The notes under the pieces are model-generated. The model had not been told where the DNA came from. It searched no databases and saw only the letters and a program-made list of their open reading frames with translations. The position numbers and the translations under genes are program-made. A stretch of DNA of 16,182 nucleotides from a virus (Duplodnaviria; Heunggongvirae; Uroviricota; Caudoviricetes), in the IMG/VR virus record IMGVR_UViG_2526164689_000027, positions 1 through 16,182 of that record; one strand, written 5' to 3'. Positions 3,965-11,434 of the stretch are shown here, piece after piece. The number at the start of each line of letters is the position of its first letter. The first letter of the stretch is position 1.

Positions 3965-4336
3965 ATGCGAATTTTCAAAAACGCCTGGTTTGAACGTTTC
4001 GCCCGAAAACATCGGATTTCCGATAAATCGCTGCGCAAAATCGTGGAGCAGGCCGATAAGGGGATCATATCCGCAAATTTGGGTAGTGGTGTCATTAAAC
4101 AAAGATTAGCCCGAAGTGGTGGCGGAAAATCAGGCGGTTACCGGACAATAATTTTTTACCGCGTTGCAGAAAAAGCCTTTTTCATCTACGCATACGCAAA
4201 GAATGAACGAGAGAATATCACTGCTATAGAGGAAAATGCTTTTCGAAAAGCCGCTCCCCATGTCCTCAATCTTACTGATGAACAGCTGGCACAATTGATT
4301 CAACAAGGCCAGTTCACGGAGGTACCCAATGAGTAA
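3965..4336 (+). CDS. RelE/ParE-superfamily toxin, HigB-2 / Gp49-like (123 aa)
   Basis: Block GSGVIKQRLARSGGGKSGGYRTIIFYRVAEKAFFIYAYAKNERENITAIEENAFRK parallels the V. cholerae HigB-2 core (GTGGLRKIRV...GKRGGSRIIYYF...YLLTIYGKNE). Its stop overlaps the start of the next gene by 8 nt, with toxin first as in HigBA-type operons. Confidence 0.7.
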   Translation: MRIFKNAWFERFARKHRISDKSLRKIVEQADKGIISANLGSGVIKQRLARSGGGKSGGYRTIIFYRVAEKAFFIYAYAKNERENITAIEENAFRKAAPHVLNLTDEQLAQLIQQGQFTEVPNE

Positions 4337-4646
4337 AAATTACCGCAGTGATGCACTTGCATCTGTACATGAAATGATGGAGTCACTCCATGATATCGGT
4401 GCAATCACAAAACAAACTATGCGCGAATTCGATGAAACTTGTCTTCAGCCTGCGCCGGTAATGTCTCCGGAAAGGATCCGTGCACTGCGAGAACGAGAGC
4501 ATCTGTCTCAACCTGTTTTTGCCAGATACCTCAACGTCAGTAAAAACCTGATATCAGACTGGGAACGAGGAGTGAAACGCCCGGGAGGTGCAGCTCTTCG
4601 GCTTCTTTCAGTTGTCGAGAAAAACGGGATCCAGGTAATATCCTGA
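4329..4646 (+). CDS. HTH (XRE-type) antitoxin, HigA-2-like (105 aa)
   Basis: Translationally coupled to the toxin. C-terminal region RIRALREREHLSQPVFARYLNVSKNLISDWERGVKRPGGAALRLL is a typical XRE helix-turn-helix. Confidence 0.7.
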   Translation: MSKNYRSDALASVHEMMESLHDIGAITKQTMREFDETCLQPAPVMSPERIRALREREHLSQPVFARYLNVSKNLISDWERGVKRPGGAALRLLSVVEKNGIQVIS

Positions 4647-4748: not shown

Positions 4749-4904
4749 TTACTCCTCAGGTTCGTAAGCTGTGAAGACAGCGACCTCCGTCTGGCCGGTT
4801 CGGATTCGTACCTCGCAGAGGTCTTTCCTCGTTACCAGTGCCGTCACTATGACGGTTAAACAGATGACAATCAGGGCGATTAACATCGCCTTTTGCTGCT
4901 TCAT
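4749..4904 (-). CDS. hokD: Hok/Gef-family type I membrane toxin (HokD/RelF-like, 51 aa)
   Basis: MKQQKAMLIALIVICLTVIVTALVTRKDLCEVRIRTGQTEVAVFTAYEPEE matches the Hok/Gef family across its full length (transmembrane helix then conserved CEVR..GQTEVAVFTAYE). ATG at 4904; the track ORF extends in frame to an upstream ATG at 4961. Confidence 0.85.
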   Translation of the reverse strand: MKQQKAMLIALIVICLTVIVTALVTRKDLCEVRIRTGQTEVAVFTAYEPEE

Positions 4905-5175
4905 AGCCTGCTTCTCCTTGCCTTTCGGCACGTAAGAGGCTAACCTACATGTGCAAAGCATGAAATTGGCCTCAGATTAATGTTAAGCGTCCTGCAAGAC
5001 GCGTAATGTTAACTGGGGCTTTTCTCTGTCTGCCTTACGGCGGCATGCCCGAGGCAGACAGCCTCAAGCACCCGCAGCAATTCTACTTAACTCTTCTTTC
5101 CCCGCAAATCATTTTATCCCCGATGGTAATGTTCTCCCGATATGGGAATTCCCATATCAAGGTTAACTCAATCGG

Positions 5176-5727
5176 TTAAAGCTCCATTAATTTTCCGGCC
5201 AGTTCATCTCGTGGCATTACCAGCCATCCGCGCGATTTAAGCAAAGCCAGGGCTTCTTCAACCGTCACCAGCTGGCCAGGCGCATAACTTCGGATGAAGG
5301 CGGTTTTATCGTCACGGATCGCCAGGTGAAAATCGATATTCATTTTTCCCATAGCCCGCTCTTTCTCGTACTGGTTGAAGTAACTGTCTTCGAGTTTTTC
5401 GAATACTTCCCACGCCTGATCGGTTTCGAGCATTTTTGCATGACGGGCTGCTCCGCGTTCTGTCCAGAGGATGAGAGTGCGGGTTTTGGGAGAAATTTTC
5501 ACCTCATTTTGCGACTCGTTTAAAACTAGTCGCAAATTTTTGAGCTCATCACCAACAGCTTTAAAGAAGTGTTTTCCCTCAATAAATCGAGATTTATTTT
5601 CATGGTGATTCTGCTGTATACGGATTGCTTCTGTTCCGTAAAGGCGGGCGAGTAACTCAGTTGTGATTACAGGAATCTGGTTATAAGTGACAGGGGAAAG
5701 GTTTTTGACAGTAACTTGAGTCGTCAT
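5176..5727 (-). CDS. ORF6N-domain protein (phage antirepressor-like, 183 aa)
   Basis: ATG at 5727 with GAGGG SD. N-terminus ITTELLARLYGTEAIRIQQNHHENKSRFIEGKHFFKAVGDEL fits the ORF6N/KilA-N-like consensus (from recollection). Confidence 0.5.
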   Translation of the reverse strand: MTTQVTVKNLSPVTYNQIPVITTELLARLYGTEAIRIQQNHHENKSRFIEGKHFFKAVGDELKNLRLVLNESQNEVKISPKTRTLILWTERGAARHAKMLETDQAWEVFEKLEDSYFNQYEKERAMGKMNIDFHLAIRDDKTAFIRSYAPGQLVTVEEALALLKSRGWLVMPRDELAGKLMEL

Positions 5728-5891
5728 GATAACGCCCTCTGGTTGATGAATTTAACTATCACCACCTTCAGGTCTCAATCATCAGGTGGCGAGACGTACA
5801 GGGTTGAGACTACCGGATCAACCAACCGGCCAGCCTTTCGGCTGCCCCATACGCCTCACCATAATTCAGATGTGCGTGCGCATACGACAAT

Positions 5892-5913
5892 AAAAAACAC
5901 GCTCGCGGCGTGT
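5892..5913 (-). terminator. Rho-independent terminator in the nin-type region (tR2-like position)
   Basis: On the minus strand: stem ACACGC / GCGTGT with 5-nt loop CGCGA, followed by 6 U (complement of A5892-A5897). Confidence 0.45.
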
Positions 5914-5998
5914 GTCTGTCGCGGTTGAATATCCGGGGTCTCAATCCCGACGGTCAACTCGACCGTGCGGTGAATATAGCCCCGGATTAGTAATTACG

Positions 5999-7788: not shown

Positions 7789-8613
7789 TTACCCCCTTGC
7801 TGACTGGTTAACCTGCGCCCTGACGTGATTTACGTGACGGGCGAATTTCTGCTCCCACTGAATCTGCGTAAACACTTTCCCCTCCGCTGCCCAGTAGTCC
7901 CGGAATGCGGTAAGTTCAGCAGGTGTAAATTCTGTCTCCGGCAAAGCCATCCCCCACAACGCAGCCCGTCGTCGAAAATCCCGTGACGGATACCAGCTAT
8001 CGGTCATCGGAAATTTTCCGATGGGTTCGCTCAGGCCATCCAGGAATACATGGGGGGCTGCCTGTAACGACAAAACTTCCTGCTCACTGATCGGAGCACT
8101 CTCGCGTGCGTTATGTGTGGGGTTTAGATCTTTGGGTTCCTTTGGGTTCCGTGATCCGTTTTTGGGTGTCTTTGATGGAAAATTTGGGTGTCTTTGGTTA
8201 TTTTCCATGCAACAAAGAGTTCCGTTTTTGGGGCTCTTTTGTGCTGAAACATAACCGTTTTCGGTACTGTTTTTATTAACAGCACCAATTTTACCCACCT
8301 TTAAAGACACCCGTTTTTGGGTGTATTCAGGCTCGGCAACACTTTCTTCTACACCGATAAGTCGGTACACCACAATTTGCTTTGTTCTGCCTTTTCTCTC
8401 ACCGGTATCAACAATTAACCCAATCTCCATCAGGTGTCGTAAGCTGTCCTGCACAGTCTTTTTGTTCAGTTCCGTTACTTCTGCCAGTGCAGATACAGAC
8501 GGGTATGCACACAAATCGGCACCGCACATATCAGCAAGCCAGGTCAATACAGACTTACTGGATGAACTGCCGGTTTTCACCTTTTTAGCCCATCGTAGTG
8601 CATCGATACTCAT
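7789..8613 (-). CDS. Replication initiator, lambda O-like (274 aa), with ori iterons embedded in the coding sequence
   Basis: ATG at 8613 with AGGGG SD; the track's longer start at 8688 would overlap the upstream gene by about 100 nt. N-terminal wHTH (MSIDALRWAKK...LRHLMEIGLIVD), a repeat-encoded linker (KSPKNGT...SKTPKNGSRNPKEPK), and a C-terminal domain, directly upstream of the P-like gene. Confidence 0.6.
   Translation of the reverse strand: MSIDALRWAKKVKTGSSSSKSVLTWLADMCGADLCAYPSVSALAEVTELNKKTVQDSLRHLMEIGLIVDTGERKGRTKQIVVYRLIGVEESVAEPEYTQKRVSLKVGKIGAVNKNSTENGYVSAQKSPKNGTLCCMENNQRHPNFPSKTPKNGSRNPKEPKDLNPTHNARESAPISEQEVLSLQAAPHVFLDGLSEPIGKFPMTDSWYPSRDFRRRAALWGMALPETEFTPAELTAFRDYWAAEGKVFTQIQWEQKFARHVNHVRAQVNQSARG
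8131..8324. repeat. Iteron cluster, putative prophage origin of replication
   Basis: TTTGGGTTCC twice in tandem (8131-8150); TTTGGGTGTCTTTG at 8161-8174 and 8184-8197; degenerate copies at 8225-8240 and 8311-8324; an inverted copy AAAGACACCC at 8303-8312; AT-rich stretch 8253-8300. Lies in the linker region of the O-like gene, as the lambda ori does. Confidence 0.5.
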
Positions 8614-9136
8614 ACGAACCCCTGGCAGATATTTGTTTATCTGCAAAGTAATATTGATACTGCTGACGATACGCATGCTTGAAAGCAATAGCTTTTTCTA
8701 TAAGCTCGTCAGTCTCACGTTCCACAACAGATGGATCCGCAAAAAGCAGTCCGGACTCCACCACATCGCCATATTCTTTGTTTAACCCGGCGATCATGTA
8801 CGTGATGCTTTTTCCGTCACTAATTTCACGATACAACCTGAAATCATTAATCCGGATAGCCTCCATAATTGCAGGCACTAGCGCCGTGAACTTTTCACGC
8901 TTATCCCTGGTGTCGATAGCCTTCCAGCGTTCGAATATCTTCACTCGATTAACGCCAAGCGCTCGCTGATCAACCGCGCCACCTTCATCTGTGACACGCT
9001 GAACATCGATGTTCGGGCGCTCTTTCAAAACCCAGAATGCTTCAGTGATTAATATCGTCGCCTGCTCCTGTGTCATTCCTGGTCGACATATCCAGGCATC
9101 CAGAGCCTCACGAGCCTGTTCAGGAGTGATTTTCAT
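8585..9136 (-). CDS. Protein in the cII position (183 aa), possibly YdaT-like
   Basis: ATG at 9136 overlaps the end of the cro-like gene by 17 nt. Sits between cro-like and O-like genes. Family assignment is by position only and is weak. Confidence 0.4.
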   Translation of the reverse strand: MKITPEQAREALDAWICRPGMTQEQATILITEAFWVLKERPNIDVQRVTDEGGAVDQRALGVNRVKIFERWKAIDTRDKREKFTALVPAIMEAIRINDFRLYREISDGKSITYMIAGLNKEYGDVVESGLLFADPSVVERETDELIEKAIAFKHAYRQQYQYYFADKQISARGSYEYRCTTMG

Positions 9137-9347
9137 TGTTCAACCGCCCCGCCCGCTTCGTCTTACGATATTCGTCATAAACCTTGGGATCATACAGAAG
9201 CTCGCCGCCAGATGCCTCCTGTAGACGCATCGCGCGACCTTCAGGAACTAGCTCTTGCCATTGAGAAACAGCAGATGGGTCAACGCCAGCAGCTTTCGCT
9301 ACTTTGGCTTTCGTACCGTAAAAATTAATTACGTCTGATTTAAACAT
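9120..9347 (-). CDS. dicC: Cro-like HTH regulator (DicC / YdaS family, 75 aa)
   Basis: ATG at 9347 with GGAGGT SD; the track start at 9374 is upstream of the SD. Divergent from the repressor gene. AKVAKAAGVDPSAVSQWQ is a Cro/CI-type HTH, and the C-terminus RAMRLQEASGGELLYDPKVYDEY is typical of this family. Confidence 0.65.
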   Translation of the reverse strand: MFKSDVINFYGTKAKVAKAAGVDPSAVSQWQELVPEGRAMRLQEASGGELLYDPKVYDEYRKTKRAGRLNNENHS

Positions 9348-9354
9348 CGCACCT

Positions 9355-9424
9355 CCAATATTGAGTTTTCTCAATACTAATCACTCAAGGAATCTCAAGT
9401 CAAGGGTTATTAAGATATCTAAAT
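9355..9424. promoter_or_regulatory. Divergent immunity promoter/operator region (oR-like)
   Basis: 14-bp palindrome TTGAGTTTTCTCAA at 9361-9374. On the minus strand, -35 TTGACT (9403-9398) and a -10-like TAGTAT follow with the palindrome over the start site. The repressor gene starts at 9425 with no strong SD. Confidence 0.45.
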
Positions 9425-9832
9425 ATGAACGAGAAAACTTTAGGTCAACGCATTAGAGAAAGACGTAAGCAGGTAGGCTTAAGTCAAAACGGTTTAAGCA
9501 AAGCTGCTGGCGTATCTGGCTCATCAATTTCATTATGGGAAAGTGACCATACAGCCCCGCGCGGGCAAAATTTGCATCGCCTCGCCGAGGTATTGCAATG
9601 TTCACCAACCTGGATACTGTTTGGCGACGAGGACAAAACACCAGCTCCCCCTGTTTCACTCGATAGTACCCTAGACTTATCGGAAGATGAGTTAGAGATG
9701 CTGCGTTTGTATCGCGCACTTCCTAAATCAGAGCAACAAGCACAACTCAGCGAACTCCGCGCCCGCGTTGAGAATTTTAATCGCCTGTTCACCGAGCTAT
9801 TAGAGGCTCGCAAACGCAACAAGCATCAATAA
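9425..9832 (+). CDS. dicA: DicA-like prophage repressor (XRE HTH, 135 aa)
   Basis: N-terminal HTH QRIRERRKQVGLSQNGLSKAAGVSGSSISLWESDH, then LQCSPTWILFGDEDK and C-terminus ELRARVENFNRLFTELLEARKRN, closely matching my recollection of E. coli DicA, which is also 135 aa. Confidence 0.8.
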   Translation: MNEKTLGQRIRERRKQVGLSQNGLSKAAGVSGSSISLWESDHTAPRGQNLHRLAEVLQCSPTWILFGDEDKTPAPPVSLDSTLDLSEDELEMLRLYRALPKSEQQAQLSELRARVENFNRLFTELLEARKRNKHQ

Positions 9833-9890
9833 TCATCCCTTCACAAAATTTTAAAGCCTTACATTTCAATGTATTGGCTTTATCTTGCGC

Positions 9891-9948
9891 CAATACTTGA
9901 GTTTTCTCATCAAAAAACCTTGACGAAAAATAATGAGAAAACTAAATT
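9891..9948 (+). promoter_or_regulatory. oL/pL-like operator-promoter for the leftward early operon
   Basis: CAATACTTGAGTTTTCTCA (9891-9909) repeats the oR motif CAATATTGAGTTTTCTCA (9356-9373) with one extra base; an inverted copy ATGAGAAAACTA is at 9932-9943. -35 TTGACG (9920-9925), 17-nt spacer, -10 TAAATT (9943-9948), with operator copies covering the spacer. Confidence 0.4.
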
Positions 9949-10024
9949 ATCTCCATCAACACACCGCACGGTGTTCTCCGCAAACAGTTCCGCTACCCCG
10001 GCGTTAAGGGGAAATGAGGTCAGC

Positions 10025-10177
10025 ATGGATACTATCGATCTTGGCAACAACGAATCTCTGGTATGTGGCGTGTTTCCCAATCAGGACGGCACGTTTACCG
10101 CGATGACGTATACCAGAAGCAAAACGTTTAAAACGGAAGCTGGCGCGCGTCGCTGGTTAGCAAGAAACTCTGACTGA
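10025..10177 (+). CDS. ydfA: YdfA-like small protein (50 aa), first gene of the dicB-type operon
   Basis: ATG at 10025 with GAGG SD 7 nt upstream; the longer track ORF from 9869 has no SD and crosses the promoter. Size and position after dicA match Qin ydfA. Confidence 0.5.
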   Translation: MDTIDLGNNESLVCGVFPNQDGTFTAMTYTRSKTFKTEAGARRWLARNSD

Positions 10178-10827
10178 TGAGGTTGACGATGGAATTTAAA
10201 GATTTACCTCCTTCAATCCAGGAGATTGCAGCACACACACTTCGTCATCGTCTGAACGAACTTGAATTGGAATCGGTAACGAAAAAAGACACTGATAATA
10301 TGGCTCGTAATGTGCGCGATGCGTTTACCGGATTGTATTTCTGTGCGTCTATAAATAAACACGACTCAGAGAGTGTGGCAAATAAAATTGCAGAAACGAC
10401 AGCGCAAAACATCAATACGAAACCAACGGAAGAAGAAATTGATCAGTTTGCTCATGATGCTGGTTTAAAAAACAAGAAAGAAAAATCGCCATATGCGGGG
10501 AACATGTTTGTTTATGACAATCTCATCAGAATTCGTGGCGAAATTCCGGCGGAATACCTGGCAAGAGTCCATCAGGCATTGCTTAAAAATTTGGAAACAG
10601 AATTATTTGATGGCAACACTAACGGTTTCTTCATGGTATCAGGCCTTGAGAAAGACTGGGATGCAGAAAAACGCTGGAATGTTGCTACATGGTTATTCAG
10701 TAACAGAGCCGCTGCACTGGAAGCTTCGGCATGTATTTGCGGCCTGTTCTTAACAGACCACAAATATAATCTGGATGTGTACAGTTATATTTACGCTGAA
10801 CACGGTCCACTCTGGATTGACTGGTAA
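10177..10827 (+). CDS. Hypothetical 216-aa protein, no recognisable domain (alternative start 10189)
   Basis: ATG at 10177 overlaps the upstream stop (TGATG); the internal ATG at 10189 has a GAGG SD. Soluble, acidic, no transmembrane segment or nucleotide-binding motif seen. Occupies the slot where I recall Qin carrying only the small ydfB/ydfC genes. Confidence 0.5.
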   Translation: MRLTMEFKDLPPSIQEIAAHTLRHRLNELELESVTKKDTDNMARNVRDAFTGLYFCASINKHDSESVANKIAETTAQNINTKPTEEEIDQFAHDAGLKNKKEKSPYAGNMFVYDNLIRIRGEIPAEYLARVHQALLKNLETELFDGNTNGFFMVSGLEKDWDAEKRWNVATWLFSNRAAALEASACICGLFLTDHKYNLDVYSYIYAEHGPLWIDW

Positions 10828-11376: not shown

Positions 11377-11434
11377 TTCTGGTGACATTTGGCGGTATCA
11401 GTTTTACTCCGTGACTGCTCTGCCGCCCTTTTTT
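11377..11434 (+). ncRNA. dicF: DicF small regulatory RNA (Hfq-dependent sRNA targeting ftsZ and other mRNAs)
   Basis: TTCTGGTGACATTTGGCGGTATCAGTTTTACTCCGTGACTGCTCTGCCGCCCTTTTTT matches my recollection of E. coli DicF almost base for base, including the terminator hairpin GGCGG (11391-11395) / CCGCC (11423-11427) and U-tract. Lies just upstream of dicB as in Qin. The 5' end is approximate (RNase-processed in K-12). Confidence 0.7.

Follow-up and report, generated by a model that had tools for sequence, protein, structure and literature searches.

The window analyzed here is the whole stretch of 16,182 nucleotides, and the region described below is arranged around the gene for a 135-aa, DicA-type repressor. 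The ATG of this gene is separated by 77 bp from a divergent cro-like ORF (9347-9120), with YdaT-like, DnaT-domain and lambda-P-like replication genes farther to the left on the same (minus) strand. On the right side, beyond the ydfA-like gene and DicF RNA, exonuclease and excisionase genes are found on the plus strand; dicB is annotated in a stretch of phage mEp460_ev081 that is 91% identical to this region. The features are collected in Table 1, in which the promoters are consensus matches only.

Table 1. Genes, predicted promoters and putative operators of the repressor region (positions in the window).
Feature	Position	Strand	Remarks
Diverged 'imm' cassette	9251..9953		cro N-terminal (HTH) half, OR, repressor gene, OL and nothing else
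cro/dicC-like gene, 75 aa	9120..9347	-	ATG at 9347; GGAGG Shine-Dalgarno 9356-9352; Pfam P22_Cro, E = 3e-16
O_R1, perfect copy of the putative operator, TTGAGTTTTCTCAA	9361..9374	+	spans predicted start point of cro promoter
pR-like cro promoter	9374..9403	-	-35 TTGACT 9403-9398, 18-bp spacer, -10 TAGTAT 9379-9374 (promoter scan)
Candidate O_R2, TCAAGGAATCTCAA	9385..9398	+	one consensus half-site, within pR spacer; 2 mismatches to TTGAG-N4-CTCAA
Candidate O_R3, TTAAGATATCTAAA	9410..9423	+	overlaps -10-like TAAGAT (9411-9416), directly before repressor ATG
Repressor gene, 135 aa, DicA-type	9425..9832	+	P22 C2-like HTH domain, short C-terminal domain
OL promoter-distal putative operator, TTGAGTTTTCTCAT	9897..9910	+	ends 9 bp upstream of -35
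pL/dicBp-like promoter	9920..9948	+	-35 TTGACG 9920-9925, 17-bp spacer, -10 TAAATT 9943-9948 (promoter scan)
OL promoter-proximal putative operator, TTTAGTTTTCTCAT	9933..9946	-	in spacer, overlaps first four bases of -10
ydfA-like gene	10025..10177	+	first gene of OL-promoter operon; Pfam DUF1391, E = 9e-30
DicF RNA	11377-11428		downstream of ydfA-like gene; Rfam, 77 bits

The repressor matches Pfam HTH_3 (E = 2.5e-15) and no other domain, and a search of its 135 aa with Pfam found no peptidase (S24) domain. It is 57% identical to DicA of the K-12 prophage Qin (Kim) (E = 3e-52), and its residues 1-72 align without a gap to the N-terminal domain of P22 C2 (phmmer, E = 8e-16; 1adr, 2r1j), from which it differs at recognition-helix positions 32, 33, 34, 37 and 40. 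The protein may dimerize via its C-terminal domain, for which no relative with a solved structure was found. The HTH segment of the cro-like protein likewise differs from that of Qin DicC, and the C-terminal half of the protein is identical to DicC. As a separate observation, a perfect 14-nt inverted repeat, ACGCCAGCAGCTTT / AAAGCTGCTGGCGT, is located at 9283-9296 and 9500-9513, and its arms each encode K-A-A-G-V, with identical codons, within the cro and repressor HTH motifs; the repeat is too long for chance, and gene conversion or a common origin is possible.

The repressor ATG has no Shine-Dalgarno sequence, and a -10-like TAAGAT lies 8 nt upstream of it (9408-9427). A -10-like hexamer is also found 6-9 nt before the repressor ATG in Qin and in five further loci, L011-L015, and the equivalent -10-like sequence of P22 directly precedes the c2 ATG. 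This arrangement suggests that the repressor mRNA is leaderless, as is the cI mRNA of lambda.

When compared with Qin of E. coli K-12, the window is 97% identical over 8900-9250 and 92% identical over 9954-10170, and the 9251-9953 segment between them is ~30-60% identical. The two mosaic break points, 9250/9251 and 9953/9954, enclose exactly both HTH-coding segments and all of the putative operators. DNA-binding specificities that travel together with their targets are the classic signature of an immunity cassette. The cassette was found in 797 of 5426 complete E. coli genomes (~15%), and the repressor has 356 relatives in IMG/VR. Two temperate phages, mEp460_ev081 and HannyBb, match the region at 98% identity. 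Copies nearly identical to this E. coli prophage region, or to Qin, also occur in metagenome-assembled genomes labeled Bacillota, Veillonella parvula and Collinsella (L003, L004 and L008), which are most likely binning contaminants.

The initial annotation had reported an operator motif of 18 bp that recurs on both sides of the repressor gene. The repetition, with its sequences and coordinates, was confirmed when we re-read positions 8700-10500, but the unit was not: an 18-19-bp frame (CAATA[C]TTGAG...) can only be maintained among the copies by a 1-bp indel, the region is at its most polymorphic across the CAATA part of this frame, and symmetry and polymorphism both favor a conserved, symmetric 14-bp core. 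This palindrome, TTGAGTTTTCTCAA, is exact at O_R1, recurs with one mismatch at the promoter-distal OL site and is present as an inverted copy with two mismatches at the promoter-proximal OL site. At up to two mismatches these are its only three matches in the entire window, all of them in the two control regions, against 0.28 expected by chance, and three matches were attained in one of 200 shuffles. The 10-mer AGTTTTCTCA has three exact occurrences and six matches at up to one mismatch, the latter a count attained in none of 200 shuffles, and the repeat finder recovered the same relations among the motif copies as a direct pair, D2, and two inverted pairs, I1 and I2. In the literature searched the motif string had no match and no published operator was found for this specificity.

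Could the repeats be no more than chance similarity, or a sequence common to AT-rich promoters that has no specific binding role? The region is indeed AT-rich, and if the center is left free the half-site pattern TTGAG-N4-CTCAA occurs (at up to two mismatches) at seven places in the window, which does not exceed the shuffled expectation of 8.5. However, five of those seven places, i.e., the three copies together with 9385-9398 and 9410-9423, are within about 200 bp of control DNA, and our own arithmetic from the shuffled density gives ~0.03 matches expected in the 50 bp from O_R1 to the repressor ATG. The full 14-mer, in turn, is rare, as the counts above attest, the sites are conserved against hypervariable flanks and, as detailed below, the motif changes with the repressor type across loci. 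We consider that coincidence has next to no chance of being the correct explanation. A partial fourth copy, AGTTTTCTCG at 9430-9439 (-), which in the E. coli type lies within repressor codons 2-5, was not counted among the sites; it is absent from the Buttiauxella orthologs, where the protein reads MNEMTL, is out of the 24-25 bp register described next and is probably not an operator.

In OR, the perfect copy has, by alignment, the same position as Oc of Qin and OR1 of P22. The leftward -10 hexamer abuts this copy, the predicted start point falls inside it, and the GTCAAG -35 of pR is invariant in an alignment of P22, Qin, Buttiauxella and Citrobacter. The center of O_R1 is 24 bp from that of candidate O_R2, which is in turn 25 bp from that of candidate O_R3. 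The former aligns with TAAAGGAATCTTTA of P22, the GGAAT center being common to both, and the latter, which is invariant in 17/17 haplotypes and likewise in the Citrobacter locus L007, has the position of P22 OR3 and Qin Oa. In addition, at the O_R3 position Qin (Oa, TTAGCATTAGCTAA), L013 and L014 each have half-sites of the type found in their respective group. To judge from the sequence, OR is probably three-part, like that of P22, with these two as further weak sites; O_R2 is a candidate operator, and O_R3 a candidate for binding by either the repressor or Cro. Both may nevertheless not be repressor sites, because the corresponding predicted sites of Qin, Om and Oa, are unbound by DicA when tested alone (PMC3441716).

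In OL, the well-formed -35/-10 pair that the initial annotation had placed over the inverted copy was recovered as a consensus match, and this promoter aligns with dicBp of Qin. The outer half, CTAAA, of the promoter-proximal site is degenerate and doubles as the start of the -10 hexamer. The promoter-proximal site is conserved, and the promoter-distal site is kept in 39 haplotypes and in Buttiauxella. The two sites are 36 bp apart, center to center, and since this is a non-integral number of helical turns, cooperative binding at OL is not obvious. P22 has a further site ~19 bp upstream of the distal one; no comparable third OL site was found here.

The OL copies also form an inverted pair (9893-9910 / 9933-9950), and this pair could in principle, instead of binding protein, fold into a hairpin in RNA or DNA that serves, for example, to attenuate or terminate transcription reading through from the repressor gene, given that its arms of 18 nt are 89% complementary and 22 nt apart (the inverted pair I1). 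We regard this as very improbable on several counts. Each arm is itself a dyad with the geometry of a P22 operator, and for the OR copy there is no partner that is conserved, as Buttiauxella has lost the partial copy at 9430-9439. Furthermore, there is no T-run after the pair, the scan called no terminator, and the pL start is predicted downstream of the pair; therefore, the main transcript would not contain it. The scan called no intrinsic terminator after the repressor gene either, and the minimum-energy fold there, which uses GCCAATAC, was set aside as it is not conserved in the 96%-identical group. A conserved hairpin that the scan did not call is located just past the repressor stop codon (9853-9881, +; AAAGCC ... 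GGCTTT, then ATCTTG) and may be a weak terminator between the repressor transcript and the OL promoter; L014 has a much better version of it at the equivalent position.

Variation among relatives of the same immunity type was assessed in 80 IMG/VR loci and four genome loci, in which 17 OR and 39 OL haplotypes could be distinguished. Over the 17 haplotypes, 13 of the 14 positions of O_R1 are invariant, and adjoining bases vary in up to 8-10 haplotypes. When all three copies are taken together, variation affects 9 of 42 positions in the cores versus 41 of 48 in their flanks of 8 bp (Fisher p = 7e-10, a generous value as the haplotypes are related). The conserved islands of OL are the two putative operators, the -35 TTGAC and the -10 TAAATT. 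Two Buttiauxella prophages extend this pattern: their repressors are 76% and 74% identical to the one in the window and have the same recognition helix, S[G/D]SSISLWES, and both retain (A/C)TGAGTTTTCTCAAT at all three places, in unchanged orientations, with diverged intergenic flanks.

A second line of evidence is provided by eleven loci with DicA-type repressors, 99-44% identical, which we grouped by recognition helix. A distinct palindrome characterizes each specificity group and flanks the repressor gene on both sides. Qin and L010 share TTGTTAGTCATAACTAACAA, L011-L013 have TTGTTAGATTTTCCTAACAA-like sites, L014 and L015 carry TAACTTTTGTTA, and TTGTTGAGTTT... is that of the Citrobacter locus L007. 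In all but one of the 11 loci, the longest word common to both control regions sits where the operator is expected, and its length was attained by at most one of 300 shuffles in six loci and by 2% of shuffles in a seventh, L011.

Like the repressor helix, the recognition helix of Cro, DPSAVSQW, covaries with the motif, and one may ask whether the Cro/DicC-like protein is the sole or main ligand of the palindromes while the 135-aa repressor recognizes something else. In P22 and lambda the repressor and Cro use common operators, which counts against such a division, and besides the 14-mer we found no other repeated element common to OR and OL. In Qin, the ChIP-seq peaks that flank dicA are DicC peaks (PMC11430063), which would be in keeping with binding by Cro alone, but the site corresponding to O_R1 is bound there by DicA itself, and one changed base is enough to abolish the binding (PMC3441716). 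Binding of the palindromes only or mainly by Cro is improbable.

We conclude that 9251-9953 is very probably the immunity cassette of a lambdoid, mEp460_ev081-like prophage, of the build of P22 immC and Qin, in which the 14-mers would serve as repressor operators. The operator reading is based on sequence, positions, conservation, covariation and homology. The 135-aa repressor would bind TTGAG-TTTT-CTCAA as dimers, each P22 C2-like HTH reading one TTGAG half-site, with the central T4 tract left uncontacted and its narrow minor groove favoring binding. P22 repressor binds its 18-bp sites as a dimer that contacts positions 2-7 and 12-17 and not the central 4 bp, and a site with a central A-tract is the one that it binds tightest (PMC4267663); the invariant T4 center of the sites described here fits this indirect-readout mode. 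In OR, repressor on O_R1 would cover the -10 edge and the start point and so shut off the leftward promoter of cro, ydaT and the replication genes, and in OL, repressor on the two sites, which bracket the -35 and overlap the -10, would occlude and shut off the rightward promoter for ydfA-dicF-dicB and recombination. The two weak sites would complete a three-part OR, and the one at 9410-9423, which overlaps the weak and probably leaderless promoter of the repressor gene itself, is a likely target of Cro or of repressor autoregulation.

How might such a repressor be inactivated? As it is without a peptidase domain, we infer that induction would proceed through an antirepressor and not through RecA-mediated cleavage. 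The window contains an Ant-type anti-repressor ORF (5727-5176, -; phrog_2379) with a C4 antisense RNA (5782-5866) and an isrK-like RNA (5892-5966) ahead of it, so that 5176-5966 (-) has the form of a P1 immI or Gifsy-1 isrK-style module. No homolog of rem was found in the window; mEp460_ev081 has the same immunity cassette together with rem. Nor was a LexA box (CTGT-N8-ACAG) found near the antirepressor or in the immunity region, and LexA control was rejected as the sole perfect match, CTGTTTTTATTAACAG at 8267-8282, lies inside the DnaT-domain replication gene (7789-8688, -). Three further elements were noted elsewhere in the window: a hok/sok-type module at 4749-5073 (a MokW-like ORF and an Rfam sok match), an STnc100 sRNA at 536-724, downstream of the Q antiterminator gene, and two small ORFs on the plus strand (3965-4336 and 4329-4646; an HTH in the second) that look like a toxin-antitoxin pair.

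An identical repressor with identical operators is coupled to unrelated putative induction modules, Rem in mEp460_ev081 and Ant/C4/IsrK here. A more far-reaching reading, which we hold to be rather unlikely, is that Rem and Ant both inactivate this one repressor and that it recognizes its sites in part by their shape. In that case, interchangeable antirepressors would dock on one and the same surface, the short C-terminal domain of the repressor. Similarly, the T4 center, together with Arg46 in place of Asn46, the minor-groove residue of P22, would make the protein a shape-readout variant of P22 C2.

What does the region add to an already well-described class of genetic switches? It represents a new specificity within the well-known immunity regions of the P22/Qin type; its design is a textbook one, the prediction is not surprising, and our understanding of lambdoid switches is unchanged. 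By the reading proposed here, the cassette would control the dicF/dicB cell-division inhibitors as well as phage early genes. Now that an operator of 14 bp is defined and its likely strong and weak sites are listed, reporters and ChIP or footprint experiments can be designed, and heteroimmunity against the Qin and P22 types predicted, with no further work of discovery.

The comparison with lambda that the initial annotation had drawn holds in its logic, in that one repressor gene lies between OR- and OL-type regions with a common operator, but the closest model is P22 immC and not lambda. As in lambda, the repressor gene between OL and OR is transcribed away from OR, Cro is divergent, OR is probably three-part and, as we propose, a single repressor would shut off both early promoters. 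The protein family and operator sequence differ from those of lambda, however, and here OR and OL are only 536 bp apart and there is no S24 autocleavage domain.

P22 immC DNA was included in our comparison as locus L097, and the sites that we compared are presumably OR1-OR3 and OL1/OL2 as mapped by Poteete et al. (1980). Both OR and OL are colinear with P22 in their -35 hexamers, their TAAATT -10 and the distances between sites and promoters. The three OR sites of P22 precede the c2 ATG and are spaced 23-25 bp apart, and TAAAGGAATCTTTA, the middle one, has the GGAAT center; its Cro also belongs to Pfam P22_Cro, and the N-terminal domains of the repressors are homologous over residues 1-72. Its pL (TTGACC, 17-bp spacer, TAAATT) differs from the one here (TTGACG, 17 bp, TAAATT) in a single letter of the -35. 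Of the P22 sites at this promoter, TTAAGTTTTCTTCA stops 9 bp short of the -35 on its upstream side and aligns with the promoter-distal site, and TTAAGAAGTCTTAA lies within the spacer and aligns with the promoter-proximal site. The geometry of half-sites around a 4-bp center is also matched, by sequence, although the half-site is TTAAG in P22 and TTGAG here, and the C-terminal domain of C2 is RecA-cleavable whereas that of the repressor described here is a short segment of ~60 aa. By sequence, then, the region would work like P22 immC but with another immunity specificity and another route of induction. With respect to the latter, it would resemble the Gifsy-type phages, whose non-cleavable repressors GfoR and GfhR are inactivated by antirepressors; common to both are a short HTH repressor without a cleavage domain and an antirepressor gene on the same prophage (PMC10448788). 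It differs from them in that a search ahead of the antirepressor gave no LexA box and control appears to be exerted via C4/IsrK-type RNAs.

The assignment to the DicA type is borne out by the identity to DicA given above and by gene order, orientation and operator positions that are as in Qin. In both, an HTH_3 repressor of 135 aa without a peptidase domain is adjoined by a divergent cro/dicC-like gene and by a ydfA ... dicF ... dicB operon, and one operator sequence is found at homologous positions of the dicC-type and dicBp-type promoters. The operator to cro/dicC -35 distance is 33 versus 34 bp, two sites 35-36 bp apart bracket the -35 of the downstream promoter, and DicF lies downstream. 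The differences are in the operator itself (TTGTTAGTCATAACTAACAA in Qin, TTGAGTTTTCTCAA here), in the recognition helices of both repressor and Cro, and in the antirepressor, which is rem in Qin and of the Ant type, behind C4 and IsrK RNAs, in the window. Moreover, Qin is cryptic, whereas the immunity type described here is carried by the functional phages mEp460_ev081 and HannyBb.

The operators mapped in Qin are located where the prediction made for the window would place them and not elsewhere, with Oc at the O_R1 position and peaks of DicC flanking dicA (PMC11430063). In vivo binding of DicA has been shown at Oc, a site that overlaps the dicC -10; the start site of dicC transcription was located by 5'RACE, and Oc-bound DicA also activates transcription of dicA (PMC3441716). 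On the other side of the gene, dicBp is repressed by DicA, and as early as 1988 Bejar et al. had pointed out three sequences resembling operators to each side of dicA (PMC10448788). The principle of one repressor with two control regions was already described for Qin in that year, and the region reported here would follow it with an operator and recognition helices of its own.
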